In this document: in pieces, positions 3,584-34,253 of the stretch
Layout of the letters: every line of letters begins with the position of its first letter
Position numbering within the stretch: the stretch's first letter is position 1
Source of the DNA: Anaerolineae bacterium
GTDB taxonomy: Bacteria > Chloroflexota > Anaerolineae > Epilineales > Epilineaceae
Direction: 5' to 3'
DNA: 34,268 nt
Assembly: GCA_029262755.1 (NCBI GenBank)
Contig: JAJCYU010000284.1
Coordinates: 1-34,268, forward strand
Notes under the pieces: generated by a model
Database searches by the model: none
Seen by the model: only the letters and a program-made list of their open reading frames with translations
What the model was told of the DNA's origin: nothing
Translations under genes and position numbers: made by a program

Positions 3584-3846
3584 CTTCCCCCCTTGACGTC
3601 GCCTACGCGATCCGGTCGCTACCGTAGTGCCCGCTGCTTGGCCCGCTTTCGGCGCACCGATCTTTGCGCGCATTCAGCCGTTCCGTAGCACGGTATCGCG
3701 GCACCAACAACACGGCTTCGCCCTGGACGCAGCACACGGGCGTAGACCCACCAACCGTAGCAAACGCCTGCACAGTCCCGGTTTGTTAACATGAAGATAA
3801 CCGCAGGCGTTCACGATTGCAAGCCGGTCAAAGTGGGATGGCCCCC

Positions 3847-9397: not shown

Positions 9398-9488
9398 GCG
9401 CGGCGTCGTGGCGCCACGACGCCCGGTCGCGAGGGACCGGGCGTGCGGCGGTTCAGCCCGCGTGTCAGCCGTCGGACGGCGACGAGGC

Positions 9489-11726
9489 TCAGCGGGTACG
9501 GCCCATCGGCAGCAGCGCCTCGGGGGCAAGTCTTTCGATACGGGGTGATCCTTGCATCGAGGTTGGCCGGCCCACGATCTCGACGGGTGCGCTCCGGGAC
9601 GGATCGAAATCATCGCGATCCCAACCACGGACCGTGGCCAGGTCGGCTGCGTTCGGCGCGACCGCGCGCATGGGCACCACGTGCATTCCCTCCGGCGTGC
9701 ACAACTCGAGCACGACGTTGTCGACACGGAAGTTGGTCAGCAACTCGTTGGCGTTGAGGATGCCGACCAACAACAGATGCGCTTCGTCGAAGCCCTCACC
9801 TTGCACGAATCCGGACGTGATGTCTGCTTGCAACGGCCACCATCTATCGCTGGGGAACGGCGTCGTCGTGTTGGGAGCAAAGCTGTCCTCGCTGACGGCC
9901 ACCAACGAACGACCATCGTCGTTGGTGTTGCCACGGGTTCCGATGCCGAATCGATCCGCGTTGTCACCGTTGCTTCGATCTTCCTGACTCACGACATTGA
10001 GCCACCATCGGACCGTGGCCGACTCCAACTCGCCTTCCGGTAGGGTGGTCACCGGCTCGAGTGCCATGACCGCTTCTTGAGCACCGGGGTAGAGTCCGAA
10101 GATCACGCCGAAGTTGCTCTGGAGAGCGCCATCCGCCCTGATGCTTGCTTGGTTGTTGGCGGACTGTTGCTGCCAGCCGACATTGGGACCCTGCTCGAAG
10201 TCGCCGTTGACCAACGGGTTCGTGCAGTTGGCCGGCAACGTCGGCTTGGGCGTAGCTTCGCCGGGCGGCGTCGGGCTCGCGGTCGGGGGGTTGGCGCCGG
10301 GCGTTGCCGTCGGTCCCGGGCTACCGGGCACGATCTCTGCGGTGCGCGACGCGGCGGCCACGTCAGAGCCACGCAGGTAAATGGATGTGCGATAGCGTCC
10401 GTTCGGCACCGGGATCGCGTTACCGGAGGCATCCACGAAGCCGACGCACTGGAATGCGAAGCTCGCCTCGGCCGGCGCGTCAAACGTGTCGTTCACACCC
10501 GTGACATTGCCCGGGTCCAACTCCTCGAACACGCCGCCTCGTTCGACAAACCATTGCACGCGCATGGGGGTCCCCACCACCATGTCACGCCATTGCTCCC
10601 GCGCGCACAGCTGCTGAATACCATTGGTGAAGCGCGTGCCTTCATTGGCCAACGCGCCGGTCTCGCGGTTGATGTCCGTTCCAAAGTCCACGGAGATCGA
10701 CCCCGTCTGCGGTGTGGGGAATTCGCTGGGCAGGTTCGCCTTGTCGAAGTTGTTGAACACGAAGGGAAGGAAGGCGCGGTTTGGATCCGGTGCCGGTCCT
10801 GGGCCCGGACCGGGTCCCGGCTGCGGCGTCGAGCTGGCGGTGGGCACCGGGCTTGGGCCCGGGCCTGGATCGCTGATCGTCTTGCCGACGATCTCGACGT
10901 TGTCGATGATGACGCCCATATGGGTTCCTTCGGGCGTCAAATCGCGGTGGATGAAGTAGACGAATACCTCATCGAGACCTCCGGCCAGCGCAAACTCAAG
11001 CGGCTCTCCCCAACCCACCCATTGCTTGCGTGGCCCATCTTCGCTCGCGAGCGTCCGGCAGTCCAAATTGGTCGTGCTGTCACGCCGGTCGGTGCATACG
11101 AGGAAGGCCTTCGCCTCCGCCGCATTGTTTGGTTCGCCGGTACGGACGGGGAGGTCGGGGTAGAACTGGTGTTGGACGGTCAGCCCGTCTGGAAACGCCG
11201 TGAGATCCATGGGCCCGTAGGCTAACACGCTGGCAACCGGGTCCGCGTACACGCCGCCAAATCCGAGCGTGCCACCAATGGTCCCGCCACCAATGGACCA
11301 AGCCGCCTGAACGCCGCCGTCCCGCGGGACCTCGATATCTTCCATGGCCCATATGAAGTTCGGGTCTACACCCTCGGGAGCAAGGTCATCGAAGGTGCGC
11401 CACCCTGTGGGCGGAAACTCCGTGCCTTCGAAATCTTGACTCTCCAAGACCTCATCCATCGTGTCGAAGGAAGACCGGTTCGCGCTGGGGCGAATGCCGG
11501 CCGGCACGACCGGAACGGTGTCGTTGATCTCGAGCACCCGTCCTCGGAGCAGGTCGTCGGGCGCATGCGCAGCCGCAAGGCCGGAGCCGGAAGCCAACAA
11601 ACGCGCCTCCAAGTCCTCACCAACGTCCTGCGCATGGGATGGACCGCCGGAAGACGCAAGGACGCCCACCGCGACGGCGATAGGCATGAGCACGACGAGG
11701 CCCGTGCGCGCGAACTGTCCGAACAT
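9489..11726 (-). CDS. Large secreted multi-domain protein (MAM/jelly-roll domain, Pro-rich linkers, Ig-like domain, CBM-like domain)
   Basis: RBS AGGGAGG before ATG 11726; signal peptide ending PSHA-Q; QDFEGTEFPPTGW to GVIIDNVEI domain; PGPGP linker; RAFLPFVF motif; NPLVNGDFEQG to FRVDNVVL (CBM4/9-like pattern). Confidence 0.85.
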   Translation of the reverse strand: MFGQFARTGLVVLMPIAVAVGVLASSGGPSHAQDVGEDLEARLLASGSGLAAAHAPDDLLRGRVLEINDTVPVVPAGIRPSANRSSFDTMDEVLESQDFEGTEFPPTGWRTFDDLAPEGVDPNFIWAMEDIEVPRDGGVQAAWSIGGGTIGGTLGFGGVYADPVASVLAYGPMDLTAFPDGLTVQHQFYPDLPVRTGEPNNAAEAKAFLVCTDRRDSTTNLDCRTLASEDGPRKQWVGWGEPLEFALAGGLDEVFVYFIHRDLTPEGTHMGVIIDNVEIVGKTISDPGPGPSPVPTASSTPQPGPGPGPGPAPDPNRAFLPFVFNNFDKANLPSEFPTPQTGSISVDFGTDINRETGALANEGTRFTNGIQQLCAREQWRDMVVGTPMRVQWFVERGGVFEELDPGNVTGVNDTFDAPAEASFAFQCVGFVDASGNAIPVPNGRYRTSIYLRGSDVAAASRTAEIVPGSPGPTATPGANPPTASPTPPGEATPKPTLPANCTNPLVNGDFEQGPNVGWQQQSANNQASIRADGALQSNFGVIFGLYPGAQEAVMALEPVTTLPEGELESATVRWWLNVVSQEDRSNGDNADRFGIGTRGNTNDDGRSLVAVSEDSFAPNTTTPFPSDRWWPLQADITSGFVQGEGFDEAHLLLVGILNANELLTNFRVDNVVLELCTPEGMHVVPMRAVAPNAADLATVRGWDRDDFDPSRSAPVEIVGRPTSMQGSPRIERLAPEALLPMGRTR

Positions 11727-11983: not shown

Positions 11984-13177
11984 TTACTCCGCGCTGCGGG
12001 GAACGACCGCGAAGGGCAGATAGACGATGTCGAAGGGCACCTCGCTCGTCGGACCCGCGGTGGGCGGGTCGGCGGGCGTGGAGGTCACCTCCGTGGTACT
12101 CGTCGCCGTAACCGGTGCATCGGGCGTTGTTGTGGTCGCGGCGGGCTGCGTGGGTGTACCTACCGGCGGAACCAATGTGGCGACGGTGGTCTCCGTCGGC
12201 GTAGTACGGCTTGGCGTCGCGCTCGGCGTCCTTCCCGGAATCGGGGTCAGCGTCGCGGTTGCGCTCGCGCGCGGAGTAATCGACGGCGGTACGTCGCTCG
12301 GCGTAGACGACGGCGTTAGCGTCGCCGAATTCGTTGGCACGCCTGTCGGGGGCGTCGTGGTCGTTGGTGACGGGGTGACGCTCGGCGTCGCTTCCTGCGT
12401 TCCCGTGGGCCGCGGCGTCAACGTCGGAGGGCGCGTTGGGCCTGCGGTGGCGGATGGGAAGCGAGTCGGCGTCGGGCCGCCTGATCCACCGCGGCCGCGA
12501 ATCACGACCTCGTCGATCAACGCACCGTAGTCGCCACCCTGCGCGAGGATGTCAGAATAGCGGATCTCCACCCATACGGACTGCCGGTTGCCCGCGTCCG
12601 TGAAGACCATGCCCGGATCCGGAAAGGTGGCCCAGTCCGTCTCATCGATGCCCGTGCCAAAGCAACCATACTCTTCGCCAACGCCCTCCCCGACGACGCA
12701 AACGGTGAAGGACTGCACGCTCGGCGCCTGGAGCTTGAACAGGAAGTTGACCTCGAGCCCGCCGGGATAGCTCTGCGTGTCGATCGGACCGAAGCGAAGG
12801 ATCGTAAACACACTGCTCAGATACGGATCTAGACAGCCGAGCATGGCACCCGCTTCGCCGTCGCGCACGGACCATGCGACCGCGTCACCACCGCCCGGAG
12901 CCGGGTCGCAGGTCTCTCGTCCCCACGTGTACTGCGGGTTGGTTCCTCCTTGGCTGGCGAATACGTCGACCGACTCCCATCCGGGCGGCGGAAAACTCGG
13001 GTCCTCGAAGGACTGCTCCTCCAGCACGGTCGACTGCGCCGTCGGCGCGGCCGAGAGCGGCGAACGCAACGTGTCCATCATCGCCCATCCGAAGCTGCAC
13101 GTCGTGGCGGCTAGCAGGCCTACAAACGCGAAACGCCGGAAATGGCGCCTGGCAACGTGTCGAGCGTGGTGACTCAT
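11984..13177 (-). CDS. Secreted protein with MAM/jelly-roll domain, long Thr/Pro-rich stalk and terminal YLP motif
   Basis: RBS GAGGAG before ATG 13177; signal peptide; EQSFEDPSFPPPGW to GALIDEVVI domain; about 150 aa Thr/Pro-rich tail ending IVYLPFAVVPRSAE. Confidence 0.85.
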   Translation of the reverse strand: MSHHARHVARRHFRRFAFVGLLAATTCSFGWAMMDTLRSPLSAAPTAQSTVLEEQSFEDPSFPPPGWESVDVFASQGGTNPQYTWGRETCDPAPGGGDAVAWSVRDGEAGAMLGCLDPYLSSVFTILRFGPIDTQSYPGGLEVNFLFKLQAPSVQSFTVCVVGEGVGEEYGCFGTGIDETDWATFPDPGMVFTDAGNRQSVWVEIRYSDILAQGGDYGALIDEVVIRGRGGSGGPTPTRFPSATAGPTRPPTLTPRPTGTQEATPSVTPSPTTTTPPTGVPTNSATLTPSSTPSDVPPSITPRASATATLTPIPGRTPSATPSRTTPTETTVATLVPPVGTPTQPAATTTTPDAPVTATSTTEVTSTPADPPTAGPTSEVPFDIVYLPFAVVPRSAE

Positions 13178-13254
13178 GCCGATTCTCCTCGTCGCCGTAG
13201 CGGCGACTTGTTCGGGACCCAAGATCGGCCGCTCGGCGGCTCGCGCAACGGTCC

Positions 13255-14703
13255 TCAACGGAATTCCAAGGTACGGAACGTCTCATAGCGATATGCGTCT
13301 TGCGATAGCCCGGTTCCCGCGCCTGTCGTACCGCCGGCCAAGAACAAAGTCCGGCCAAGCAACGCCATCCCGGCGCCGCGGCGCGGCGTGGGTCCCGGCA
13401 CCCGCGCGAAGGGCACCCAACCGGCATCGATGTCTTCCAACGTCAATCCAATCGTGCCCGCATCGTTCTCAAGCGCGGCGTCCCAGCCGCCTCCGACGAC
13501 GTAGAGTCGGTTGACCGGATTGTCCAACGCGACCATCGCGTGCCCGGCTCGGCCGCGAGGCAGCGCCAACGCATCGGGATCCCAAGCGGGTTTGGCGAAG
13601 GGCCGATACACCCAATGGTCCGTTTCGAGATCGCCGTCGCGATCGCGACCGCCCACCAAATGGATTTCGTCCCGATCGGCGATCGCCGCCGCCGCGAGAT
13701 CGGCCCTGGGCGCCGGTAGGCGGTCGACGACGGCCCATGCGTTCAGTTCGGGATCGAAGCGCAGGACCTCGTCCAACGCGCTGTCCGCTTCGTCCGTCGT
13801 GCGCCCGCCGAAGAGATAGGCCTGGCCGTCGAGCACCGCGAGCGCATACGCGCATCGAGGTGAGGGCAGCGATGCGGATGTCTGCCATCGATCTTGGGCA
13901 GGATCGTAGATTTCCACGTCGGCGATCGCATTCCCGCGTGCGTCACAACCGCCAGGCACGAGCAGGCGCCCGCGCAGCTCTGCAACCTGCACGTCGCGCA
14001 CTGCGAGCGGCTTGGCGCGCAGCGCGAGCCACGCGACTTCCCGAGGCTCGAACACGAGCAACTCCGAGAGCACGCGCGCCCCGTCGAAACCGCCGACGGC
14101 AAACACGCGCCCCCCCACGACGCCCAACGCGAGACCCGTGCGCGGCTCGGGCAACGGTCGAATGGGCACCCACAACGGGAGCCCACGCGGCTGCGCCTGC
14201 GGCGTTGCCGTAGCGAGGGCCCGGCCCGGACCAATCGACGAAGCATCCCGCACGATCACGGCCAATAGTGCCAGCGTTAGAACCACCACGACGCCACCGA
14301 GTCTGCGGACGTTGCGGCCATGACGACCCTGGGCGCGTTCGAGCTCGGCGGCGCGTTGCCGTTCCCGCTCCAAGGCCTCCGCGAGCTCGCGTGTGGCATG
14401 AGCGCGCGCTTCTTCATCCTCGTCGTCCGGAGTATCGATTGCGACGAGGCCGAACTCGAAGGCATGCAAGGCCATCTCCACCCGATTGGAGGTGCCGAGC
14501 TTGCCGTTGATGTTGGTGACGTGCTTCTTGACCGTCGCCTCGGAAACCCCGCGCTGGTGTGCGATCTCGCGGTTCGACGCGCCGGTCGCAACGAGGCGAA
14601 TCACCTCGAGCTCGGTCTCGCTCAGTCGTGCGACGGGCGAGGGCTCAGCCTCGTCGGCGCCGCTCGCGCCGCGCGCGCTGGCGCCTTCGAGTGGGTCGGT
14701 CAT
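13255..14703 (-). CDS. LuxR-family HTH regulator fused to coiled coil, transmembrane helix and Kelch-repeat beta-propeller
   Basis: LSETELEVIRLVATGASNREIAHQRGVSEATVKKHVTNINGKLG is a LuxR HTH; TM helix LGGVVVVLTLALLAVIV; six Kelch-like blades (VFAVGG, LLVPGG, AYLFGG, IHLVGG, LYVVGG, LFLAGG). Confidence 0.9.
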   Translation of the reverse strand: MTDPLEGASARGASGADEAEPSPVARLSETELEVIRLVATGASNREIAHQRGVSEATVKKHVTNINGKLGTSNRVEMALHAFEFGLVAIDTPDDEDEEARAHATRELAEALERERQRAAELERAQGRHGRNVRRLGGVVVVLTLALLAVIVRDASSIGPGRALATATPQAQPRGLPLWVPIRPLPEPRTGLALGVVGGRVFAVGGFDGARVLSELLVFEPREVAWLALRAKPLAVRDVQVAELRGRLLVPGGCDARGNAIADVEIYDPAQDRWQTSASLPSPRCAYALAVLDGQAYLFGGRTTDEADSALDEVLRFDPELNAWAVVDRLPAPRADLAAAAIADRDEIHLVGGRDRDGDLETDHWVYRPFAKPAWDPDALALPRGRAGHAMVALDNPVNRLYVVGGGWDAALENDAGTIGLTLEDIDAGWVPFARVPGPTPRRGAGMALLGRTLFLAGGTTGAGTGLSQDAYRYETFRTLEFR

Positions 14704-14711
14704 GGGCCGGG

Positions 14712-14720
14712 ATTATACCA
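14712..14720 (-). promoter_or_regulatory. Consensus extended -10 (TG-g-TATAAT) 8 nt upstream of the LuxR-Kelch start codon
   Basis: Reverse complement of attatacca; perfect TATAAT in very GC-rich DNA; no Shine-Dalgarno before ATG 14703. Confidence 0.65.
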
Positions 14721-15777
14721 CGCGGCGCCCGATCCAAAGGGGAAAGACGGCCGGCGGCCTTCGCCGTCGCACATGGGCCTTGAGCGGGCGCATTGCCATG
14801 CGCCAGCCGAGCCACGGACGCGAGCGGCGCCACCGCACCATGCCGCCGACCTCCCCGTCCACGAGGTCGCGCGCCACCAGAAACTCGCGGCTGCCCAAGG
14901 CGTCGGAGGCGAAACCGTAGCGTTGTAGGTAGGCTTCGCGCCGCTCGGCGACCATCCGTCGGCCATGGCTCGAGTGTGCGTAGAACGGTGAGTCGACGAC
15001 TACGAGCCTGCCACCGGGTCGTACGACTCCGCTCGCACGGGTAAGGGTGCGCGCGGGGTCCGGGCTGTAATGCAGCGCCGCGTTGAAGATCACCACATCC
15101 GCACTTCCAGCGGCGAGCGGCAGGTCGTCGAAATCCGCCTCCAAGCGCGCATACCGTGCTGGAGGAGCCGCGGCAGCCGCCGCGTGCAATCCATCGTGCG
15201 GATCGACCGTCACGTCGACCGCGAGCACGCGGTGACCCGCAAGCGCAAGACGGCGGCTTAGCCATCCATTGCCTGCCCCGATGTCGAGGATGCGACTACC
15301 GGCGGGCAGCTGTTGCAGCAACCGTCGGTCCAGATGTCGATAAGAACGAGCGCGGACAGCCCAGGCCGCGGCCATGGGATCGCCCGTACGGGCAAACGGA
15401 AGTCGCTGCACGGCGGCGCGCCCCCCTTCGCCGCGTCCCTCCGCATGGCGCACTTGCGCGTATTCCTCGACGAACTGTTCCAGGCGCTCGCCTAACGAAC
15501 CGGCCGGTCCGCGCCATACGCCCGCGTCCAAGCGCAGGCGCCACCCATCGGTGGCGCACGTCGGACCCGTACCCGGCTCCGATGCGGCGCCATCCAACGG
15601 CAGGTGCCCGAGCGCACGCTTACAGCGCGGACAACGGATCGGCCAACCCGATGCCGCGATCGCCTCCTGCTCGCCCTGGCCGGCTGGTGCTGTTCGTCGC
15701 CGTGTTCGCGTTGCGTTCAGCGTGGAAACCTCATACCTCGGGCGTGCCCGTGCCCGTGCCTGTGCCCGAGTCTCCAC
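14713..15777 (-). CDS. Class I SAM-dependent methyltransferase with N-terminal Trm112-like zinc-ribbon segment
   Basis: Motif I ILDIGAGNGW, ADFDDLPL, DVVIFNAALHY, RPGGRLVVVD; N-terminal CPRC...CATD. Start uncertain: GTG 15777 or CTG 15720. Confidence 0.85.
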   Translation of the reverse strand: METRAQARARARPRYEVSTLNATRTRRRTAPAGQGEQEAIAASGWPIRCPRCKRALGHLPLDGAASEPGTGPTCATDGWRLRLDAGVWRGPAGSLGERLEQFVEEYAQVRHAEGRGEGGRAAVQRLPFARTGDPMAAAWAVRARSYRHLDRRLLQQLPAGSRILDIGAGNGWLSRRLALAGHRVLAVDVTVDPHDGLHAAAAAAPPARYARLEADFDDLPLAAGSADVVIFNAALHYSPDPARTLTRASGVVRPGGRLVVVDSPFYAHSSHGRRMVAERREAYLQRYGFASDALGSREFLVARDLVDGEVGGMVRWRRSRPWLGWRMAMRPLKAHVRRRRPPAVFPLWIGRRVV

Positions 15778-17197
15778 CGCGCTCGCGCCGGGCGTACCAC
15801 GCTTCCCGGCCGCGCATCTGAACGCGGGCGATCCGCTCGCCGGCGGCCGCCGCCACCCAGGCGCCGGGATGCGCGCTCCCGGACGCCGGATCCTGGAGCC
15901 GCGCCAGCTGAACGGCATGCCGTAGCCGTTTCGTCGCGAGCGCATAGTATCGCGGCGAGGGACGACCCGCGACGGTGCGCAAGCGGTCACTTCCTTCACG
16001 CCACGAGGCGAGCGGCACGACCCGTTCGGCAACCTCGGCGTGGTAGGGCGTTCCTTCGATCGGATAGGCGACAGTGGTCAGGTACGTATCCGGATCGACC
16101 CGCGCAACGTGGCGGATCGTCGCGTCGATGTCCGCGGGCTCTTCGCCTTCGTAGCCCCACATCAGGAACAGGCCCACCTGAATGCCCGCGGCGCGCAGCA
16201 CCTGCGTCGCCTCCTCGACCTGCGCGGTCGTCACTCCGCGCTCCATGGCGTCCAAGATCCGCTGCGACCCGCTCTCGGAGCCGATCCACACCCGGAAGCA
16301 GCCCAAGCGCGCGAGGTTCTCTGCAACCTCGGCGTCCACCCGATCGGCGCGCGTGATGCACTCGAAGGGCAGGCCGATTCCGCGCGCGGTCACGATGTCG
16401 GCGTAGCGAGCCAGCCAGCGAGGGCTGATCGAAAAAACGTCGTCGGCGTACCACACCATGTCTGGTGACCATCGTTCGCGCAGATGCGCGAGTTCCGCCG
16501 CGACGTCCTCGGGGGAACGACGTGCGTGGTGATAGCCGAAGACCGCGTGGCTGCACCACCGGCACCGATACGGGCAGCCACGCGCGGTGATGAGGTTTAG
16601 CGCGCCGCGGCCATGTGCGCTGCGCCAACACGCCAGGTATGCAGGCACATCGATGGCCTCTCGGTCGGGCCAAGGCAAGGCATCCAGATCGCGGATCGTC
16701 GGGCGGGCGGGCGTGGTCACGACGAGCCCGTCTTGGTCTCGGAAGCTCAACCCGGCAATGTGATCCAACCGGTGAGGGCCTCCGGAAGCAAGCGCGGGCA
16801 GCAGAGCCTGCATCGTCCGCTCGCCTTCGCCGTGGACGATCACATCGGCGCCGGCCTCAAGGTATCGGGCCGCGTGGTTGGCCGGCTCCGGGCCGCCCAG
16901 GACGATGGTCCAGCCCAGCGCTCGCGCCCGTTCGATGAGGGCGAGCGCCGGCCCCCGGGTCGTTAGGTTGACGTAGACACCCAAGACGTCTGCCTCACGA
17001 CGGGCCAAGCGGGCCTCGACGAGCTGACGTGTATCGAAGGTTGGATCGTGCAACCCGACGTGGAAGCCGACCCGCTCCAAGTAGGCCTTGAGATACAGGA
17101 GGCCCAACGCGGGATAGGGCTTCATCACGCGCTGTTCTCCCGCGTCCTCCGCGATGCGGTGAGCATGCGTCAACAGCAGATCCACACGAGCTCCCAT
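15731..17197 (-). CDS. Cobalamin-binding domain radical SAM protein (class B methyltransferase/BchE-like architecture)
   Basis: PYPALGLLYL...IVLGGPE...GEGE (B12-binding domain); TARGCPYRCRWC (CxxxCxxC); YADDVF; IGSESGSQRILDAM. Start ATG 17197 or GTG 17185, which follows GGAG. Confidence 0.92.
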   Translation of the reverse strand: MGARVDLLLTHAHRIAEDAGEQRVMKPYPALGLLYLKAYLERVGFHVGLHDPTFDTRQLVEARLARREADVLGVYVNLTTRGPALALIERARALGWTIVLGGPEPANHAARYLEAGADVIVHGEGERTMQALLPALASGGPHRLDHIAGLSFRDQDGLVVTTPARPTIRDLDALPWPDREAIDVPAYLACWRSAHGRGALNLITARGCPYRCRWCSHAVFGYHHARRSPEDVAAELAHLRERWSPDMVWYADDVFSISPRWLARYADIVTARGIGLPFECITRADRVDAEVAENLARLGCFRVWIGSESGSQRILDAMERGVTTAQVEEATQVLRAAGIQVGLFLMWGYEGEEPADIDATIRHVARVDPDTYLTTVAYPIEGTPYHAEVAERVVPLASWREGSDRLRTVAGRPSPRYYALATKRLRHAVQLARLQDPASGSAHPGAWVAAAAGERIARVQMRGREAWYARRERGGDSGTGTGTGTPEV

Positions 17198-17371
17198 GCG
17201 AGACTCGAACGCAACAGCGCTCGGTTCGGCGTGACCAAGGACATCCTGGTGCCGGCGGCAATCAAGGGTGGCAGCGGCGTTGCACCGGGTCAACGACTCC
17301 GTTGGGTACGCGACGTACCTCCACGGCTGGACCCAGCGTCTCAACCTTTGGCATGATCGCACGGACGTATT

Positions 17372-17386
17372 GTGACGCGACGTCAC
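17372..17386. promoter_or_regulatory. Inverted repeat GTGACG-N3-CGTCAC in the divergent promoter region; possible operator
   Basis: Perfect 6-bp dyad read directly, located between the divergent radical SAM and Cys-repeat genes. Confidence 0.35.
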
Positions 17387-17478
17387 CCGAGCGCCATGTT
17401 GCACTCGATACCATGTTCCGATGGCGGCGCATCGCCCGATGGGCGGCATACCAAGCGCCGTATTCCTAGGAGGCTCCC

Positions 17479-18963
17479 ATGGCCCCATTATTGAATCGCT
17501 TGTGGCGCACCGGCCTTCCGGTCCTGCTGCCGGCCCTCTTCCTTCTCATCGCGCTCGGCGCCCCGCCCGCCCATGCGGGCTCACCGAGCCAGGACGATCC
17601 ACCGACGACGTGCGAGGATCGATGCGAAGAAACGGCGCGTGTAGCGCTCGCTGATTGCTTGGATAGTGGCCGCGCGGAGCCCGCGTGCCGAGCACAGGCC
17701 CGCAAGGTTCTCGAAGACTGCCTCGATCGATGCGAGGGCGACGATCCCCCTTCGTGCCCCGACCGTTGCGAGCAGGTCTTCGTCGAAGCCAAGCAGCGCT
17801 GCGAGGGTGCGGATAACCCTGAGCGCTGCGTCGCTGATGCACGTCAGGCCTTCGAAGACTGCCTCGAAGAGTGTCCCAAAGACGAGCCGGAGCCGACGAC
17901 CTGCGCCGGCCGCTGTGAGCAAGCGTACAAGGCTGAACTCAAGCGCTGCGAGCAAGCCGACAATCCGGAGGCGTGTCAGCGAGAGGCCCATCAGGCCTTC
18001 GAGGATTGCCTGGAAGAGTGCCCCAAGGACGAGCCCGAACCCGGTTGCGAGGACCGCTGCGAGATCGCCTTCAAGGCCGCCAAGGCCCGTTGCGAGGGTT
18101 CGGAGAACCCGGATCGCTGCGTCGCCGAGGCACGTCAGGCCTTCGAGGACTGCCTCGAGAACTGCCCCAAGGACGAGCCCGAGCCCGGCTGCGAAGACCG
18201 CTGCGAGATCGCCTTCAAGGCCGCCAAGGCTCGCTGCGAGGGCGCCGACAACCCCGAGCGCTGCGTCGCCGAGGCACGTCAGGCTTTCGAGCATTGCCTC
18301 GCCGAATGCCCGAAAGACACGCCGTTGCCTAGCACCTGCGAGGGCAAGTGCGAGCTGGCCTACAAGCAGGAGCTCAATCGCTGCGAGCGCGCCGACGACC
18401 CCGAGGCCTGTAAGCGTGATGCCCGGCAAGCCTACGAGCATTGCCTCGAAGAGTGTCCCAAGGACGCGCCGGAGCCACCCGCCCACTGCGAAGCGGACTG
18501 CGCGCGCAAGGCGGTTGCCGTGTTCCTGGAATGCTTCACGGACACGGGTGATGCCGAGGCGTGTCGACATCGCATGGATCGGTTCCTGGAAGAATGTTTG
18601 TTGACGTGCCGGCGCGACGGCGGATTGAGCAACCCTGTCGCCTTGGCGAAGCGCTGCTCCGTGCAGTGTTCGCAAGCCGCGGACCGTGCCCAGGCGGCCT
18701 GTATGAAGGCCGGTGGCAGCGGCGATAGTTGCGACGCTGCGGCCGATGCTGCGCGTGCGGATTGCGCGTCGAAATGCGCAGAAGGGCGGCGCGGTGCCTC
18801 AGGTTGTGAAGGCCACTGCGCTCGTAGTGCCCAATTGGGACGCAAGCGCTGCTTGGCGGATGGCGGCACAGAGGCGGACTGTCAAGCCGCTGCGACTCAA
18901 GCGCGAGCGACGTGTCTGGAACAGTGTTCCCAAAGCCCGCGCACCATCACCAGCAAGCCATAG
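17479..18963 (+). CDS. Secreted cysteine-rich repeat protein: nine C-x3-C-x10-C-x8/9-C-x10-C-x3-C repeats
   Basis: AGGAGG RBS at 17468-17473; signal peptide ending PAHA; 54 Cys in 9 regular repeats joined mostly by Pro/acidic linkers (PKDEPEP). Confidence 0.9.
   Translation: MAPLLNRLWRTGLPVLLPALFLLIALGAPPAHAGSPSQDDPPTTCEDRCEETARVALADCLDSGRAEPACRAQARKVLEDCLDRCEGDDPPSCPDRCEQVFVEAKQRCEGADNPERCVADARQAFEDCLEECPKDEPEPTTCAGRCEQAYKAELKRCEQADNPEACQREAHQAFEDCLEECPKDEPEPGCEDRCEIAFKAAKARCEGSENPDRCVAEARQAFEDCLENCPKDEPEPGCEDRCEIAFKAAKARCEGADNPERCVAEARQAFEHCLAECPKDTPLPSTCEGKCELAYKQELNRCERADDPEACKRDARQAYEHCLEECPKDAPEPPAHCEADCARKAVAVFLECFTDTGDAEACRHRMDRFLEECLLTCRRDGGLSNPVALAKRCSVQCSQAADRAQAACMKAGGSGDSCDAAADAARADCASKCAEGRRGASGCEGHCARSAQLGRKRCLADGGTEADCQAAATQARATCLEQCSQSPRTITSKP
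18019..18306 (+). repeat. Two near-identical 144-bp coding repeat units within the Cys-rich gene
   Basis: Units begin tgccccaaggacgagcccga at 18019 and 18163 (144-bp period); more diverged copies flank them. Confidence 0.9.
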
Positions 18964-28471: not shown

Positions 28472-29202
28472 CCCCCGTCGATACCGACGAGAGCGCCCCG
28501 GGGCGCGCGGGCCGGCATCGGGTCTTCCTCTTCGATCTGGACCAGACGCTGCTCCGTGCCAACGGCGCCGGTGGCGCCGCGTTTGCGTACGCGTTCCGAA
28601 CGGTACTCGGGGACGACACGGCGCTGCACGGAATCGAATACGCGGGGCGGACGGATCGCGGGATCCTGACCGAGGCGCTCGATCGGGCCGGCGTGTCGCC
28701 GGCCGAGCAGGGCGACGTGCGGCAGTGCATCGTCCAACGCGTGTGCGAGGCGTTGCCCGATTGCTTGCGCACTGCCGACGCACGTACGCTACCCGGATCG
28801 CAGTCCGTGTTGGCCGCGCTCTCGGAGGAACCGAACGTCACGTTGGGAATGGGCACGGGCAATTTGCGAGCGACCGCCCTCATCAAGGTGGCGCATGTGG
28901 GCTTGAGCCCGTGGTTGCACGACGGCGGCTTCGGTGACGATCACACGCAACGCCACGGCATGATCGCCGACGCAGCGGCCGCGCTCTGTCCGCCCGACCG
29001 CGACGCGGACGTCGTTGTCATCGGCGACACGGCGCTCGATGTCGCGGCCGCCCGCAGCAACGGATTCGCTAGCGTCGGGGTCGCAACAGGCGGCGCGACC
29101 CGAGCGACGCTGCAGGCCTGCGGCGCCGACGCCGTGCTTGCCGACCTACGCGATACCGAGCACGTCCTGCGCGTGCTGCGTACGGTTCGCTTCCCTGGGT
29201 AG
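28462..29202 (+). CDS. HAD-superfamily hydrolase (phosphoglycolate phosphatase-like)
   Basis: Motif I FLFDLDQTLL, motif II GTGN, Lys, motif IV VIGDTALD; in-frame GTG at 28462 overlaps the VWA gene stop. Confidence 0.88.
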   Translation: MRVAPVDTDESAPGRAGRHRVFLFDLDQTLLRANGAGGAAFAYAFRTVLGDDTALHGIEYAGRTDRGILTEALDRAGVSPAEQGDVRQCIVQRVCEALPDCLRTADARTLPGSQSVLAALSEEPNVTLGMGTGNLRATALIKVAHVGLSPWLHDGGFGDDHTQRHGMIADAAAALCPPDRDADVVVIGDTALDVAAARSNGFASVGVATGGATRATLQACGADAVLADLRDTEHVLRVLRTVRFPG

Positions 29203-29418: not shown

Positions 29419-30087
29419 ATGACCGCTGCGAGTCAGAACGGTCGCAAGCAAGGTGCGGCACCTTCCGCGAGCGCACCATGGGTCGAAGCCCAACGGCCGC
29501 AGGAACTGGAATTCGTTCCGGCCGATCAACACACGGAAATCGAGTGGCGCGTTCGGGAGCTCTTGGCCTTGTTGGGCGAAGATCCGGAACGCGAAGGCCT
29601 CCTACGCACCCCCCATCGGGTGGCCAAGATGTACGGTGAGTTGCTCGCCGGCTACACGCAAGACCTCGACGAGGTCATCAACGGCGCACTTTTCGATGTC
29701 GCATACGGGGAGGGCGAGATGGTCGCGGTGGCGGACATCGAGTACCAGTCGCTGTGCGAACATCACATGCTGCCCTTCACCGGGGTCGCGCACGTGGCCT
29801 ATGTGCCGGGCGAGCGGGTCGTCGGTTTGAGCAAGATCCCGCGGATCGTGGACATGTTTGCGCGGCGGCTACAGGTCCAGGAACGGCTGACCAATCAGGT
29901 TGCCGATGCCATCGAGTCGGCCCTGGATCCGCGCGGCGTGATGGTCGTGTTCGACGGCAGCCACAGCTGCGCGAGCCTTCGTGGCGTGAAGAAACACGGC
30001 TTGAAGATGACCACGACCGCACGTCGCGGCCAGTTCCGCGAGGACACGACGTTGCGCGATGAGTTCTACCGCCTGATCGGCCGCTGA
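29419..30087 (+). CDS. folE: GTP cyclohydrolase I
   Basis: AAGGAG RBS; GEDPEREGLLRTPHRVA, SLCEHHMLPF, GLSKIPR, RRLQVQERLT, HSC. Confidence 0.97.
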   Translation: MTAASQNGRKQGAAPSASAPWVEAQRPQELEFVPADQHTEIEWRVRELLALLGEDPEREGLLRTPHRVAKMYGELLAGYTQDLDEVINGALFDVAYGEGEMVAVADIEYQSLCEHHMLPFTGVAHVAYVPGERVVGLSKIPRIVDMFARRLQVQERLTNQVADAIESALDPRGVMVVFDGSHSCASLRGVKKHGLKMTTTARRGQFREDTTLRDEFYRLIGR

Positions 30088-30294
30088 GCGGGCCCAGCGT
30101 CGCAACGAGGACGCTGTTGGCCACAACGTCGTGTGGCCCCGACATCGGGTGCGTCCAACGAGAACCCGACCAAGGCGGGGACCGCCGTATGCGCGCTTAG
30201 TTTGGCACGCAGCGAGACGCGGGTCCGAACCATCTACCGTAGTCGCTGACTGCGTTCTTCTCCAGTTCCGCCGAGCAGGGCGGTCTCCTAGGAC

Positions 30295-31140
30295 ATGGAT
30301 CGAGACGTTATGGACCTCCAAGGCCGCGTTGCGCTCGTCACGGGCGGCGGAAAGCGATTGGGACGGGCGATCGTGCTCTCGCTCGCGCGGGCCGGCGCGG
30401 ACGTGTACGTCCACTATGGGCGTTCTTCCGAAGCTGCCGAGGACACCGCCTCGGAGGCCCGTCAGTCCGACGTGAGGGCGTGGACCGGTTCGGCCGACCT
30501 GCGCGAAGCCGATGCGATTGAAGCGCTCTTCGACGACGTGAGTCGCCGCGCGGGACGCTTGGACGTGCTTGTCAACAGCGCCGCCCGATTCGATTCGGAG
30601 GCCCTCGCGGACGTGGATATCCAGGGTTGGGCCGCGTCGATGGACGTCAACCTGCGTGCTCCGTTCTTGTGTGCCCGAGCCGCCGCGCTGCTCATGCGGG
30701 GCGATGGGGGCAATCGCTCCGGCACCAATTCTGACTCCGGCTCCGTCACCGCCGACCCAAGCGCGCTCGAGCCTGATGCTCCGGACGAAGGCTGCGTGAT
30801 CAACATCGCGGATCTCTCTGCGATCCATCCCTGGCGCGACCACATCCAGCACGGCGTCAGTAAGGCGGGCTTGGTTCACCTCGGGCACATCCTCGCGCGC
30901 GAGCTCGCACCGTCCGTGCGTGTGAACACGATCGTTCCAGGGGCCATCTTGCCGCCGCCTGGCACGTCGCCGAGTAGCGAGGCGTGGCGCAAGACCGCCG
31001 AACGCGTGCCGCTGCGCCGGACCGGCCGGCCGTCGGTGATCGCGGACTCCGTGCTCTTTCTCGCCCGCAATGACTTCATCACCGGCGCAACACTGCGCGT
31101 AGACGGCGGCGAGGGCCTGCTCGGCCCCGTTGGACACTAG
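30295..31140 (+). CDS. Short-chain dehydrogenase of pteridine reductase (FolM/PTR1) type
   Basis: TGGGKRLG with the Arg typical of pteridine reductases, VHYGRS, LVNSAA, VNLRAPF, VRVNTIVPG, ITGATLRVDGG; lies between folE and folB. Confidence 0.85.
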   Translation: MDRDVMDLQGRVALVTGGGKRLGRAIVLSLARAGADVYVHYGRSSEAAEDTASEARQSDVRAWTGSADLREADAIEALFDDVSRRAGRLDVLVNSAARFDSEALADVDIQGWAASMDVNLRAPFLCARAAALLMRGDGGNRSGTNSDSGSVTADPSALEPDAPDEGCVINIADLSAIHPWRDHIQHGVSKAGLVHLGHILARELAPSVRVNTIVPGAILPPPGTSPSSEAWRKTAERVPLRRTGRPSVIADSVLFLARNDFITGATLRVDGGEGLLGPVGH

Positions 31141-31161
31141 ACTCGACCGGAGGCCCCACCG

Positions 31162-31590
31162 ATGACCCCTGATCCGCAACGCGCAACAAACGCACAACCG
31201 ACCCTTTCACAGAGTGCGCTACCGCGCGCGGACCGCATCCTGGTACGCGATCTCCTCCTGCGCGGCGTGATCGGGCTGAACGACTGGGAGCGCGAGGTCG
31301 AGCAGGACATTCTGGTCAACTTGGAGCTTCATACCGATGTGCGTCGCGCCGGCGAAACCGATCGCGCGGAGGACATCCTGAACTACCGGACGATCACCAA
31401 GGCCATCGTAGAGCTGGTCGCGCAGGGCGAGCCTTTCCTCGTGGAACGCCTCGCGACCGATATCGCCCGCCTATGCGTGGTCGAGCACGGGGCTGCGCGT
31501 GCGCGAGTGCGCGTGGAGAAGCCGGGCGCGCTTCGTTTCGCCCGTTCCGTCGGCGTCGAAATTGAGCGGGGTCCGGAGGACTTCGCATGA
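31162..31590 (+). CDS. folB: Dihydroneopterin aldolase/epimerase (FolB/FolX family)
   Basis: GGAGG RBS; DRILVRDL..RGVIG..DWER...Q, LNYRTITK, LVERLA, VEKPGALRFARSVGVEIER. Confidence 0.9.
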   Translation: MTPDPQRATNAQPTLSQSALPRADRILVRDLLLRGVIGLNDWEREVEQDILVNLELHTDVRRAGETDRAEDILNYRTITKAIVELVAQGEPFLVERLATDIARLCVVEHGAARARVRVEKPGALRFARSVGVEIERGPEDFA

Positions 31591-32171
31591 GACAGCCGCC
31601 GTCCGATGAGGCCTTGATCGCCTTGGGTTCGAACATTCGCCCGCGTGAGCATCTTGCCGCCGCCATCCAGCGCCTGGCAGACACCGAAGGCCTGCACCTG
31701 GTGGCAACGTCCGGCGTGTGGCGTAGTGAAGCGATCGGGAGCAAGGGACCGCCGTTTCTCAACGCGGCCGTGCGCGTGCGTCTCAGCGGGCAATGGATCG
31801 ACGCCGAACGGTTGAAGTACGATGTCCTGCGACCGATCGAGGCCGCGCTCGGCCGCACGCGCGGCGAGGATCCCAACGCGGCGCGCACCATCGATCTGGA
31901 TCTCAGCATGCTCGGCGCCACCGAACGAAGGCCGGGCGCGGACGTGCGGCCAGTAGTATTGCCCGACCCCGAGGTGCTCCTGCGACCGCACGTGGCGTGG
32001 CCGCTGGCGGAGGTCGCACCGGACTGGCGCTATCCGGGCGACGGTCGGACCATCGCCCGCATCGCAGCCGCATTGGGTCGCGAAGGCATTCAACGCGAGC
32101 CGACTCGTCTACCAGGGCACCGAGCCCGCGCGAAGAAGGCAGCGGCGCTGGTGAGCGGGCACGACGGTTGA
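31587..32171 (+). CDS. folK: 2-amino-4-hydroxy-6-hydroxymethyldihydropteridine diphosphokinase
   Basis: IALGSNI, FLNAAV, IEAALGRTR, RTIDLDL; ATGA overlap with folB. Confidence 0.92.
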   Translation: MRQPPSDEALIALGSNIRPREHLAAAIQRLADTEGLHLVATSGVWRSEAIGSKGPPFLNAAVRVRLSGQWIDAERLKYDVLRPIEAALGRTRGEDPNAARTIDLDLSMLGATERRPGADVRPVVLPDPEVLLRPHVAWPLAEVAPDWRYPGDGRTIARIAAALGREGIQREPTRLPGHRARAKKAAALVSGHDG

Positions 32172-32950
32172 ACGATCCCTCCGGCTCCCTTCCCGCTCCC
32201 GTAAGCCTGGCGGCGCGAATCGCGGCGCTACGACCGCTGACGCCAAGCGTCCTCGGAGTCGATCTCGACCTCAACGGCGCGTCGCTACCCTTTCTCGCCG
32301 GGCAATGGATCGATCTGCATGTGGAACTGGATGCCGGGGATGGGGGCGGCAACGCCGTGGGCGGCTACTCCATTACCTCGCCGCCGGCGCAGCAGGGCAT
32401 GATCGAGTTGGCCGTCAAGGCAGCGCCGAGCCATCCCGTCACGCGCTGGCTGCATAGCCGCGCGGCCGTAGGCGACCCGGTGCGCGTGGTCGGCGGCCAG
32501 GGCAGCATGACGTGGAGCCCCGGCGATGGCGGACCGCTGATGTTGGTCGCGGGCGGGATCGGCATCACGCCCTTGATGAGCATTCTGCGCACCGTGGACG
32601 CCGATGCCGGCGGCACGCAGGCCACGCTGGCCTACAGCGCATCGACTCCGGTCGAGCTGGCCTTCGCACCGGCCCTGCGGCTTATGGCCGCCACGAACGC
32701 GCGCATCCAGACACATTTCACCGTCACCGGCACCGACACGGGCACCGGAACCGGAACCGGCACCGTCAGCGTGGTAGAGGGGTGGACGGGTCGAACGGGG
32801 CGAATTGACCGCGCCTGGCTCGCGGAGCTCCTGCCACCGGAGGCGCTGTGCTACGTCTGCGGACCGCCAGCCATGATCGATCGCGTCGAGACCGATCTGC
32901 GTGCGCTCGGTGTGGCGGAGGATCGGATCCGGACGGAGCGATGGTGGTGA
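32168..32950 (+). CDS. FAD/NAD(P)-binding oxidoreductase, ferredoxin-NADP reductase family (OXNAD1-like)
   Basis: FLAGQWIDL, VGGYSITSPP, IELAVK, LVAGGIGITPLMSIL, YVCGPPAM, C-terminal ERWW; TTG start overlaps the folK stop (TTGA). Confidence 0.88.
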   Translation: MNDPSGSLPAPVSLAARIAALRPLTPSVLGVDLDLNGASLPFLAGQWIDLHVELDAGDGGGNAVGGYSITSPPAQQGMIELAVKAAPSHPVTRWLHSRAAVGDPVRVVGGQGSMTWSPGDGGPLMLVAGGIGITPLMSILRTVDADAGGTQATLAYSASTPVELAFAPALRLMAATNARIQTHFTVTGTDTGTGTGTGTVSVVEGWTGRTGRIDRAWLAELLPPEALCYVCGPPAMIDRVETDLRALGVAEDRIRTERWW

Positions 32951-32978
32951 GGTTGCACGGGAGGCTCCAAGGCGAACC

Positions 32979-34253
32979 CTAGCCGCGTTCCCGTTCGCCA
33001 GAAGGATCGCCTTCATCCTCGTCGACAGGCGTGCCATCTGCCATTGCACCCTCCGGCCCAGATCCAGGCTCCCCTTCCAGCTGCGCACCGTGCGCGCCGT
33101 ACACACCGGCTAGTCGCGCCATCCGCTTGCTCACCACGGCAGCACCGAGCACGCCGAGCACGATTGCGCCCACGGCGCTCGACAGACCGAGCATGAGGAA
33201 GAGCATCGCGCGCGCTCCGTCGTCGCTGACCGCGCCGTCGTTCTCGTTCTCGTCCTCGTCCCCCTCCCCCTCTCCGTCCCCTAGCCTGTCGTCATCGGCT
33301 TCCGGCCCGTCCCGGCGATCGGCACCAGCGGCGAGCGCCCTCGCGCTCTGTGTGGCCGCCGCATCGACCGTCGCGGCCGCTACGCGCTCGTCGCTCGTTC
33401 GAGGCGCAATCGGACTGCCTCGCGTGCCGCCGTCCGACGGCGCATAGATCGCCGTGCCTGTCGGCGCGACGTCTCGCTCCGCGCCCGGTGTAATCACCCC
33501 GTCCTCGGCGCCCGGCAATCCAGGCGGCCATGTGGCTTGTGGCGGGCCGGACGAGCCGGCGTCATCGCCCGCAGAATCAGCCGACGATCCGCCTGTCGAT
33601 GGCGAGCCGCCCACCGGCTCGCGCGCGCCATGTTGCCCGACGGCATCTCCGTCCTTGCACGTCACAAGCACGGACGCATCCACCCTGCGATGGTCGATCG
33701 GTCGAGCCATCTCGTCGGCAAGGACGGTTGCTTGGAGCGAGATCGCCGACCGGCCGGCGCGTAGCCCGCGTACCCGCAGGCGCGCGATCGTTGCGTTCCC
33801 CGCGATCGCAGCCGCGGGTCGCAAGAGGACCACCGCGAAGCTCGCGACCCCTGCAAGAGCGGAGTCCTGCGGCGTCCGGACGCGGGCAGCCGTTTCAGCG
33901 TCCGGTTGGTGCACCGCGTTAACCGCGACCATGCCCTCGCCGGCGACCTCGCTAAAACGAACGGAGGCGAGCTGAATGCCGGGCGTATCGGGCTCGGCAT
34001 CGACGGCAGCGAGCAACGCGCCATCGAAGCTTAGCTGCACGTCGGCGCCCCACAATCCGGCGACGTTGGATACGACCAGCTCCAGGTCGCGCTCCTCGCC
34101 ACACGCGACGGTGATCTCGGCCGGTAGCACAGCGACGATCGCGGGGCCTTGCTTGGCTCCCAGCCCGACGCCGCGATCCGGGTCTGTTTGTGCGCGCACG
34201 GTTGATGCGCCGAGCGCGATGCAGATCGATGCGAACAGCACTGCGCGGAGCAT
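32979..34253 (-). CDS. Cohesin-domain cell-surface protein with low-complexity linker and C-terminal membrane anchor
   Basis: Signal peptide MLRAVLFASICIALGASTVRA-Q; cohesin-like LELVVSNVAGLWGADVQLSFDGALLAAVDAEPDTPGIQ; TM helix MLFLMLGLSSAVGAIVLGVLGAAVV followed by KR. The frame is open to the window edge, so the true start may lie outside. Confidence 0.75.
   Translation of the reverse strand: MLRAVLFASICIALGASTVRAQTDPDRGVGLGAKQGPAIVAVLPAEITVACGEERDLELVVSNVAGLWGADVQLSFDGALLAAVDAEPDTPGIQLASVRFSEVAGEGMVAVNAVHQPDAETAARVRTPQDSALAGVASFAVVLLRPAAAIAGNATIARLRVRGLRAGRSAISLQATVLADEMARPIDHRRVDASVLVTCKDGDAVGQHGAREPVGGSPSTGGSSADSAGDDAGSSGPPQATWPPGLPGAEDGVITPGAERDVAPTGTAIYAPSDGGTRGSPIAPRTSDERVAAATVDAAATQSARALAAGADRRDGPEADDDRLGDGEGEGDEDENENDGAVSDDGARAMLFLMLGLSSAVGAIVLGVLGAAVVSKRMARLAGVYGAHGAQLEGEPGSGPEGAMADGTPVDEDEGDPSGERERG

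Follow-up and report, generated by a model that had tools for sequence, protein, structure and literature searches.

Can the position of an OXNAD1-like oxidoreductase gene at the end of a pterin operon tell what its protein family does? The question is raised by a stretch of 34,268 nucleotides from an Anaerolineae bacterium (assembly GCA_029262755.1, contig JAJCYU010000284.1; hereafter the window), in which a tandem array of five genes occupies positions 29419 to 32950 of the + strand: folE, a gene of the short-chain dehydrogenase/reductase (SDR) family, folB, folK and an open reading frame (ORF) for a flavoprotein with the fold of ferredoxin-NADP reductases (FNR). The last of these genes (32168..32950) begins within the end of folK, and a preliminary description of the locus had taken this coupling as a genomic-context clue for the eukaryotic OXNAD1 family. 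In everything searched, the coupling is a one-off, lineage-specific addition at the end of an older operon and no family-wide clue. The protein is read here, with a probability of roughly 0.7, as a general NAD(P)H:acceptor flavoprotein whose coupling to the fol genes either arose by accident when its gene inserted in this lineage or reflects a local recruitment that has no bearing on the family as a whole.

Linkage to fol genes among homologues and relatives

The surroundings of flavoprotein homologues were searched with tblastn for the FolE, FolB and FolK of the window. Eighty of the loci, with flanks of up to 6 kb, came from named genomes (Dehalococcoidia/SAR202, Sulfuriferula and other Burkholderiales, Chromatiales, Desulfuromonadales, Bacteriovorax, Sericytochromatia and Bathyarchaeota), 29 with flanks of 1.5 kb came from the phylum of the window, including one from the unpublished genome G272, and 80 came from metagenomes, 43 of the last being at least 5 kb long. 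There was no match to any of the three queries in the named-genome loci or in the phylum loci. In the metagenome loci neither folE nor folB was found, and folK was matched once, 3.7 kb from the homologue. Altogether, folE or folB was detected near a homologue in 0 of the 189 loci.

The operon was also followed from the side of folK. Around orthologous folK genes of the same family, 8 of 11 loci had kept folE–SDR–folB–folK in this order, the proteins of the relatives being 64–74% (FolE), 58–67% (FolB) and 49–53% (SDR) identical to those of the window. None of the 11 loci had the flavoprotein gene after folK; the genes following the relatives' operons varied, including VWA, TPR, DinB, ArsR/DUF2087 and histidine kinase genes and a convergent tRNA synthetase gene. 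A homologue of the flavoprotein (E ≤ 1e-15) was present in one of the 35 genomes of the order, this one being the window's own, and in none of the 16 others of the family. Among 401 genomes sampled from the phylum, 34 had a homologue at E ≤ 1e-20, G272 being included in the count.

The simplest account of this distribution, and the most likely one, is that the gene was gained by lateral transfer in this lineage. The preliminary description had itself named a fol linkage unique to one genome as the outcome that would speak against its proposal, and linkage in this genome only is what the counts gave. Its genomic-context clue for the eukaryotic family does not survive them.

Sequence motifs and predicted fold of the flavoprotein

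The ORF at 32168–32950 (+ strand) translates to 260 residues before the stop, without an internal stop codon, and is characterized here as an OXNAD1-like two-domain protein by Pfam, alignments, homologue searches, a tree, an AlphaFold2 model and Foldseek. The motifs listed in the preliminary description are all present in the translation: AGQWID (residues 44–49), VGGYSITSPP (64–73) in the place of RxYS, IELAVK (79–84), HPVTRWLH (89–96) and the terminal ERWW (257–260), which together with the TGA stop occupies 32936..32950 (+), as read from the sequence and its translation. The nucleotide-binding motifs GGIGITP (129–135) and CGP (231–233) are present as well.

Two domains scored above their Pfam cut-offs. 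The N-terminal flavin-binding beta-barrel domain (residues ~12–111; 32201..32500, +) was delimited by PF00970 over residues 31–116 (27.9 bits, cut-off 21.1) and by the six strands of the model over residues 12–111, and it includes GQWID (45–49), GGYS (65–68; nucleotides 32360–32371) and IELAVK. The C-terminal NAD(P)H-binding Rossmann-like domain (residues ~124–258; 32537..32941, +), which includes GGIGITP and CGP, was delimited by PF00175 over residues 126–241 (53.3 bits, cut-off 22) and by the secondary structure of the model.

The AlphaFold2 model, built with a 34-sequence alignment, had a mean predicted local distance difference test score (pLDDT) of 92.1 and a predicted template modelling score (pTM) of 0.90. 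Disorder was confined to the N-terminus and to a Thr-Gly repeat at residues 187–199 (32726..32764, +), which appears as an insertion in the homologue alignment and has a pLDDT below 50 at residues 191–198. The repeat sits in a loop of the NAD-binding domain and is absent from all aligned homologues. Short unrelated contigs with a depth of 300–500 stack on its hexanucleotide-like sequence in the read layout.

With the model as the query, Foldseek matched 320 PDB chains (E ≤ 0.001), led by NADH-cytochrome b5 reductases, flavohaemoglobin reductase modules and NqrF (E 1.5e-20 to 1e-16 and template modelling (TM) scores of ~0.75–0.81; 7rom with E 1.5e-20 and TM 0.77, 1gvh with TM 0.81). By sequence, the best solved match was the E. 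coli flavohaemoprotein 1gvh (E 7.4e-13), whose RQYS stands opposite the GGYS of the flavoprotein. Of the RxYS of FNR-like reductases, in which the Arg contacts the flavin phosphate, the window protein retains the Tyr and the Ser but has Gly for the Arg. The substitution is a trait of the subfamily and no defect, 202 of 259 matched proteins having Gly or Ala at the position. The alignment to 1gvh stops one residue short of the E-x-F of that protein, and Trp259 would correspond to the aromatic residue with which FNR-type enzymes end (Phe in 1gvh). Glu163, a conserved residue that follows strand two of the nucleotide-binding domain, gives a hint of NADH as the favoured donor.

In the 34-sequence alignment the window protein keeps all 8 invariant and 17 near-invariant columns, and the codon-position GC content and the base composition of its gene match those of the neighbouring genes. 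Judged from these sequence features, the ORF is a genuine and probably functional gene for a stand-alone FNR-fold flavoprotein of ~28 kDa.

Relation to OXNAD1 and other FNR-type proteins

When 1.84 billion cluster representatives were searched for homologues, 44 proteins matched at E ≤ 1e-30 and 1772 did so at E ≤ 1e-10. The best homologues were prokaryotic proteins of ~234 amino acids, 45–50% identical to the window protein and named in their sources only as 'FAD-dependent oxidoreductase' or 'ferredoxin-NADP reductase', and a protein atlas search with the flavoprotein likewise gave generic 'oxidoreductase' clusters only. An exact look-up of UniRef and NCBI names found OXNAD1 proteins among the best 150 homologues, from Ciona intestinalis (P0221), Montipora (P0267) and Apatococcus (P0115). 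In the reverse search, the Ciona OXNAD1 found a single place in the genome of the window, which was this ORF (E 5.2e-28). In the search with the single sequence, proteins of the RxYS type (P0114 and P0116) reached scores similar to those of the named OXNAD1 proteins.

A signature consisting of GQW(V/I)D, GG(Y/F)S and a terminal E-x-W-W was drawn from the named members and not from a curated definition. All three elements, common to the Ciona, Montipora and Apatococcus proteins, are found in the window protein. The C-terminus was [ED]xWW in 174 and [ED]xW in 41 of the 259 matched proteins. Arg occupied its position in RxYS in 22 of these proteins, none of them ending in WW, and Gly or Ala in 202, of which 183 ended in WW or W. 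Since Gly or Ala and the WW or W endings co-vary and Arg never occurs together with WW, the signature marks a discrete subfamily.

A maximum-likelihood tree of 72 rows was constructed by a quick search under the LG+C20 model with posterior mean site frequencies (PMSF), its outgroup being drawn only from the top homologue matches. In this tree a branch with a support of 99 in the Shimodaira–Hasegawa-like approximate likelihood ratio test (SH-aLRT) parted 14 RxYS-type rows from 58 rows that included the window protein, eukaryotic OXNAD1 and the prokaryotic proteins with the WW ending. The window protein was placed on a long branch (0.92) at the base of the 58-row set and did not fall within the eukaryotic clade (17 rows, support 92). 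Its membership of the WW set follows from rooting the tree among the RxYS proteins and from the shared derived motifs. The profile scores of the window protein were 212.5 bits with the 17 eukaryotic sequences, 210.9 bits with the 14 RxYS sequences and 250.1 bits with 38 prokaryotic WW sequences. The OXNAD1 and RxYS profiles thus fail to separate the window protein, the score being not clearly higher for OXNAD1.

The motifs had been said at first to mark eukaryotic OXNAD1, with reciprocal searches and a phylogeny proposed as the check. What stands of this is the shared, motif-defined subfamily, borne out by the matches to named OXNAD1 proteins, the single reverse match from Ciona and the place on the OXNAD1 side of the SH-aLRT 99 branch. 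A closer tie to the eukaryotic proteins does not stand, the position being basal and outside their clade and the profiles undiscriminating. On motifs and tree together, the window protein is filed as a presumed basal prokaryotic member of an OXNAD1-type subfamily rather than as an orthologue of eukaryotic OXNAD1. The subfamily is already known but uncharacterised, and the window protein is a rather divergent new member of it.

Eukaryotic OXNAD1 has the same two-domain FNR fold with GQW(V/I)D, GG(Y/F)S, (I/L)ELAVK and the terminal E-x-W-W, and is 35–37% identical to the window protein over near full length. It has, however, an N-terminal extension of 50–100 residues that the window protein lacks, while the Thr-Gly insert belongs to the window protein. 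The nearest relatives are the prokaryotic WW proteins (Dehalococcoidia/SAR202, Sulfuriferula, Acidihalobacter, Bathyarchaeota and Sericytochromatia), with 45–50% identity, the same motifs and length class and the best profile score. The window protein differs from them in ~12 additional N-terminal residues and in the Thr-Gly insert, and their genes have lineage-specific neighbours, with neither folE nor folB nearby in the 189 loci examined. E. coli Hmp (1gvh) and the NADH-cytochrome b5 reductases (7rom, 2eix and 1umk) share the fold and the GxGxxP and CGP nucleotide-binding motifs, but they retain the Arg of RxYS, have another C-terminus and act with a defined haem partner, either fused to them or separate, whereas the window protein is stand-alone, with Gly for Arg and the WW end. 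The pteridine reductases of the FolM/PTR1 type, which are SDRs, are similar to it in genomic setting only, such an SDR being encoded two genes upstream in the same operon. SDRs have an unrelated fold and cofactor use, and transfer hydride directly from NADPH without a flavin.

Proposed function of the flavoprotein

The catalytic steps of a general reductase can be proposed from the fold, from the motifs and from what is established for enzymes of the FNR type. NAD(P)H would be bound by the C-terminal Rossmann-like domain at GGIGITP and CGP, and hydride would pass to a flavin. This flavin, most likely FAD, would be bound in the N-terminal beta-barrel through the Tyr and Ser of GGYS, stacked on Tyr67 and capped by the C-terminal pair Trp259 and Trp260. 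Once reduced, it would hand its electrons to an external acceptor, which may be a quinone, a free flavin or a small redox protein. The genomic context does not fix this acceptor. In the locus itself, a laterally gained gene would have landed at the 3' end of the family-conserved folE–SDR–folB–folK operon, where it would now be co-transcribed and translationally coupled through TTGA.

Several points weigh against this reading. The overlap of 4 nt with folK amounts to obligatory co-expression with pterin genes, and genes of the same operon are often functionally linked. Some of the loci searched for fol genes were short, and single FolB and FolK queries in tblastn could miss divergent copies; FolE should not escape such a search at the 64–74% identity seen among the relatives. 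Many of the searched genomes are incomplete, that of the window (G000) being 84% complete. The argument for lateral gain is the patchy distribution only, composition showing no foreign signal. The nearest homologues are only 45–50% identical, so that no donor can be named, and formally the gene could instead have been lost from all other genomes of the order. In the tree, which was made with a quick method and has the window protein on a long branch, the branch grouping this protein with the RxYS rows had a support of 44, and such a grouping was neither shown nor rejected.

The fol operon and a possible pterin role

The first gene of the operon is folE, encoding GTP cyclohydrolase I (29419..30087, +; NCBIfam NF006825 241.5 bits with a cut-off of 174, TIGR00063 218.2 bits, Pfam PF01227 237.2 bits). 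It is followed by the pteridine-reductase-like, FolM/PTR1-like SDR (30295..31140, +), whose best NCBIfam matches, PRK09135 with 198.9 bits and PRK09134 with 191 bits, were below the respective cut-offs of 288 and 281. The glycine-rich loop of the SDR is VTGGGKRLG, in which TGGGKRLG fits TGxxxRxG, presumably the signature of FolM/PTR1. The third gene is folB/folX-like and encodes a dihydroneopterin aldolase or epimerase (31162..31590, +; PF02152 101.1 bits, TIGR00525 folB 72.5 bits with a cut-off of 72.15, FolX PRK11245 95 bits and thus below its cut-off of 152). The fourth is folK (HPPK, 194 amino acids; 31587..32171, +; TIGR01498 73.2 bits with a cut-off of 54.1, PF01288 74.3 bits). The G+C content of the window is 67%.

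The start of folK overlaps the stop of folB, and the stop of folK overlaps the start of the flavoprotein gene. The latter junction reads ...gacggTTGAacg..., with the flavoprotein TTG at 32168–32170 and the folK TGA at 32169–32171. The overlap of 4 nt (gTTGA; TTGA at 32168..32171, +), which was read directly from the sequence, bears out the overlapping TTG start given in the preliminary description. The start context is weak, the codon being TTG and a clear Shine-Dalgarno sequence lacking. Further along the frame, an alternative start codon (ATG, GTG or TTG) first occurs at residue 52, within the conserved GQWID region, and homologues begin near residue 12–16; TTG at 32168 is therefore the only plausible start.

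The C-terminus of FolK is ~20–30 residues longer than those of the relatives, whose matches stop at query residues 156–177 of 194. The extra tail (32090–32171) is basic and reaches the overlap with the flavoprotein start. It may be a by-product of the insertion of the flavoprotein gene. A fusion of FolK and the flavoprotein through a frameshift was also considered and ruled out, the FolK proteins of the relatives ending earlier and the flavoprotein homologues beginning at about residue 12–16. A site scan found no promoter-like sites (0.3 expected) and three terminator-like sites (2.2 expected), which is evidence neither way.

A convergent ORF of 424 amino acids with no Pfam family (32979..34253, minus strand; from the ORF listing and Pfam) forms the 3' boundary of the operon after a gap of 28 nt. 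Just upstream of folE lies a gene for a HAD-like hydrolase (28540–29202), which was not beside the operon in the 11 loci of relatives examined. Farther away, at 13255–17488 on the minus strand, genes for a LuxR-type helix-turn-helix protein fused to Kelch repeats, an S-adenosylmethionine (SAM) methyltransferase and a B12-binding radical SAM protein stand in a row, and large ORFs without a Pfam family are found near them (1664–3673, 7754–9727, 9489–11726 and 11984–13258).

The best surviving alternative, though an unlikely one, is that the flavoprotein has a pterin or folate redox role in this organism, reducing quinonoid or 7,8-dihydropterins or dihydrofolate, or feeding electrons to an enzyme that uses the pterin product of the operon. 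Translational coupling to folK at the end of folE–SDR–folB–folK speaks for such a role, as does the gene content of the 84% complete genome, in which no FolA-type dihydrofolate reductase (DHFR; PF00186) was found and one homologue of pterin-4a-carbinolamine dehydratase is present elsewhere, besides two Pterin_bind proteins. However, the absence of FolA is a trait of the family, with only 1 of 17 genomes having a DHFR match that passed the cut-off, and 16 of these genomes are without the flavoprotein, so that the flavoprotein is not what fills the gap. For the same two reasons the SDR conserved in the operon is the obvious candidate for a FolM-like enzyme carrying out the reductase step in place of FolA, and the need for a flavin-based pterin reductase is therefore weaker. 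Reductases of the FolM/PTR1 type are a known bacterial way of reducing pterins in such operons.

The closest solved sequence, the E. coli flavohaemoprotein, is also in favour of a pterin role: it was reportedly first purified as a dihydropteridine reductase, and would then be a precedent for FNR-type modules reducing pterins. Some homologues, furthermore, lie beside a molybdoenzyme gene (6 loci) or ~3.6 kb from MoeA (7 loci), which is a tie to molybdopterin and not to folate. Against the role stand the single linkage, with one non-adjacent folK as the only folE, folB or folK match near the homologues elsewhere, the missing flavoprotein gene at the relatives' folK loci, and the aromatic amino acid hydroxylases (PF00351), of which none was found in the genome at its 84% completeness. 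Still less probable is the stronger claim that an OXNAD1-type flavoprotein was recruited into the pterin operon, either to reduce dihydropterins (quinonoid or 7,8-) or dihydrofolate with NAD(P)H or to donate electrons for a pterin-using step.

On another contig the genome has a second HPPK gene (C205:26473-26949; locus L142, 4980-5486, minus strand), which is more canonical than the operon copy (PF01288 114.8 vs 74.3 bits) and adjoins an enoyl-CoA hydratase gene, not folP. Two HPPK (folK) paralogues are carried by genomes of the family. The operon copy of folK may serve a specialised pterin branch.

Gene neighbours of the homologues

The ORFs around 80 genome loci and the directly adjacent same-strand ORFs of 160 loci were clustered, and the representatives were scanned against Pfam. 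An acyl-CoA dehydrogenase gene was directly upstream on the same strand in 19 of the 160 loci (L032, L039, L048, L049, L051, L054, L061, L069, L150, L151, L155, L156, L158, L159, L162, L163, L165, L180 and L222), the named records being Dehalococcoidia/Chloroflexota bins. In a further 14 Dehalococcoidia loci an NMT1/THI5-like gene overlapped the start of the homologue. MsrB was encoded directly upstream in 14 loci (L038, L070, L075, L076, L080, L084, L086, L087, L093, L105, L178, L199, L212 and L225), mostly of Sulfuriferula and other Burkholderiales and including three metagenome contigs; this neighbourhood is possibly a context of methionine-sulfoxide or sulfur redox chemistry. Genes for a metallo-beta-lactamase-fold protein were downstream of the homologue in 8 of the 160 loci, and such a gene is 3' of the homologue in 8 of the 14 msrB loci.

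The other adjacent genes encoded a class I/II aminotransferase (10 of the 160 loci, from Bathyarchaeota and metagenome contigs), alanine dehydrogenase/PNT (10), the large subunit of a xanthine-dehydrogenase-type molybdoenzyme (6) and adenine deaminase (5). A generic SDR, 27–31% identical to that of the window, was found near the homologue in many Dehalococcoidia loci. MoeA and PurH (7 loci each, MoeA at the distance given above) also recurred near homologues, giving only a loose link to the use of molybdopterin and folate. No neighbour gene was common across phyla. A search for fused, longer forms gave two proteins at E ≤ 1e-15, neither of them informative, and a Pfam scan of the N-terminal extensions of nine longer members detected no domain. 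The pattern fits a general-purpose reductase, or one with different partners in each lineage.

That the protein is a dedicated reductase for one specific partner encoded elsewhere, for instance MsrB, an acyl-CoA dehydrogenase or a molybdoenzyme, with its position after folK being incidental, is considered improbable, and clearly more so than either form of the pterin role. FNR-fold modules commonly donate electrons to partner proteins, and the genes of these three candidates do recur beside homologues as counted above. But the neighbours vary by lineage, none of the three adjoins the gene in the window, and neither the longer proteins nor the N-terminal extensions name a partner.

Read and assembly support

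An independently assembled contig of 1670 nt from the best-holding public run, X1, matched positions 31400–32890 with 0 differences and bridges the junction between folK and the flavoprotein ORF; this run may be the sample from which the window itself came. The runs of a second study gave short pieces with 98–99% identity that cover parts of folK, the middle and the 3' end of the ORF and the intergenic region. In runs X2–X4, which are marine metagenomes of that study, the matching pieces lie at 31522–31872, 32535–32730 and 32859–33100 and have a low depth. Pieces of the flavoprotein gene in runs X3 and X4 were near-identical, with 1–4 differences per 160–224 nt. There was no contig over 31873–32534 in the second study's runs, so the junction is unbridged there. 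Since pieces with this identity are present in the marine runs, the organism, or a strain close to it, also occurs outside the biofilm sample in which the whole stretch is present.

That the gene is a mere passenger, neutral or decaying and without function in this organism, is hardly credible: its occurrence in a single genome of the order, the unusual low-complexity Thr-Gly insertion and the weak start context would suit such a gene, but the frame is intact, no residue invariant in the family has been lost, confidence in the model is high except at the insert, the codon-position GC content is native-like and near-identical pieces of the gene occur in runs X3 and X4.

OXNAD1 in the literature and the meaning of the locus

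In the literature searched, no enzymatic substrate or biochemical function was found for OXNAD1, in agreement with the earlier remark that its function is poorly defined. In the texts covered, OXNAD1 mostly appears in expression signatures, as a marker or as a partner in the bidirectional DPH3/OXNAD1 promoter. One paper has it in a figure legend of proteomic enrichment (PMC11912224), the abstract of another describes the promoter common to OXNAD1 and DPH3 (PMC4742151), and a 2026 review cites a gastric-cancer study of OXNAD1 on NAD/NADH balance and ferroptosis (PMC13409929). The top Foldseek match of the window protein was yeast Cbr1. This protein we take to be the reductase of Dph3, which together with the shared DPH3 promoter makes only a loose lead.

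OXNAD1 is a conserved eukaryotic flavoprotein, and a conserved bacterial neighbourhood would have been a useful lead to its function. Its prokaryotic relatives are widespread without a conserved partner, and the clue from the fol genes should not be carried over to the family. The lineage-specific neighbourhoods with MsrB, acyl-CoA dehydrogenase and the molybdoenzyme may provide candidate acceptors. If the recruitment into the pterin operon were nevertheless true, the orphan OXNAD1 family, to which the human mitochondrial protein belongs, would thereby gain its first substrate class. What is left by the locus is a testable pterin hypothesis for one enzyme in an unusual and unique genomic position.

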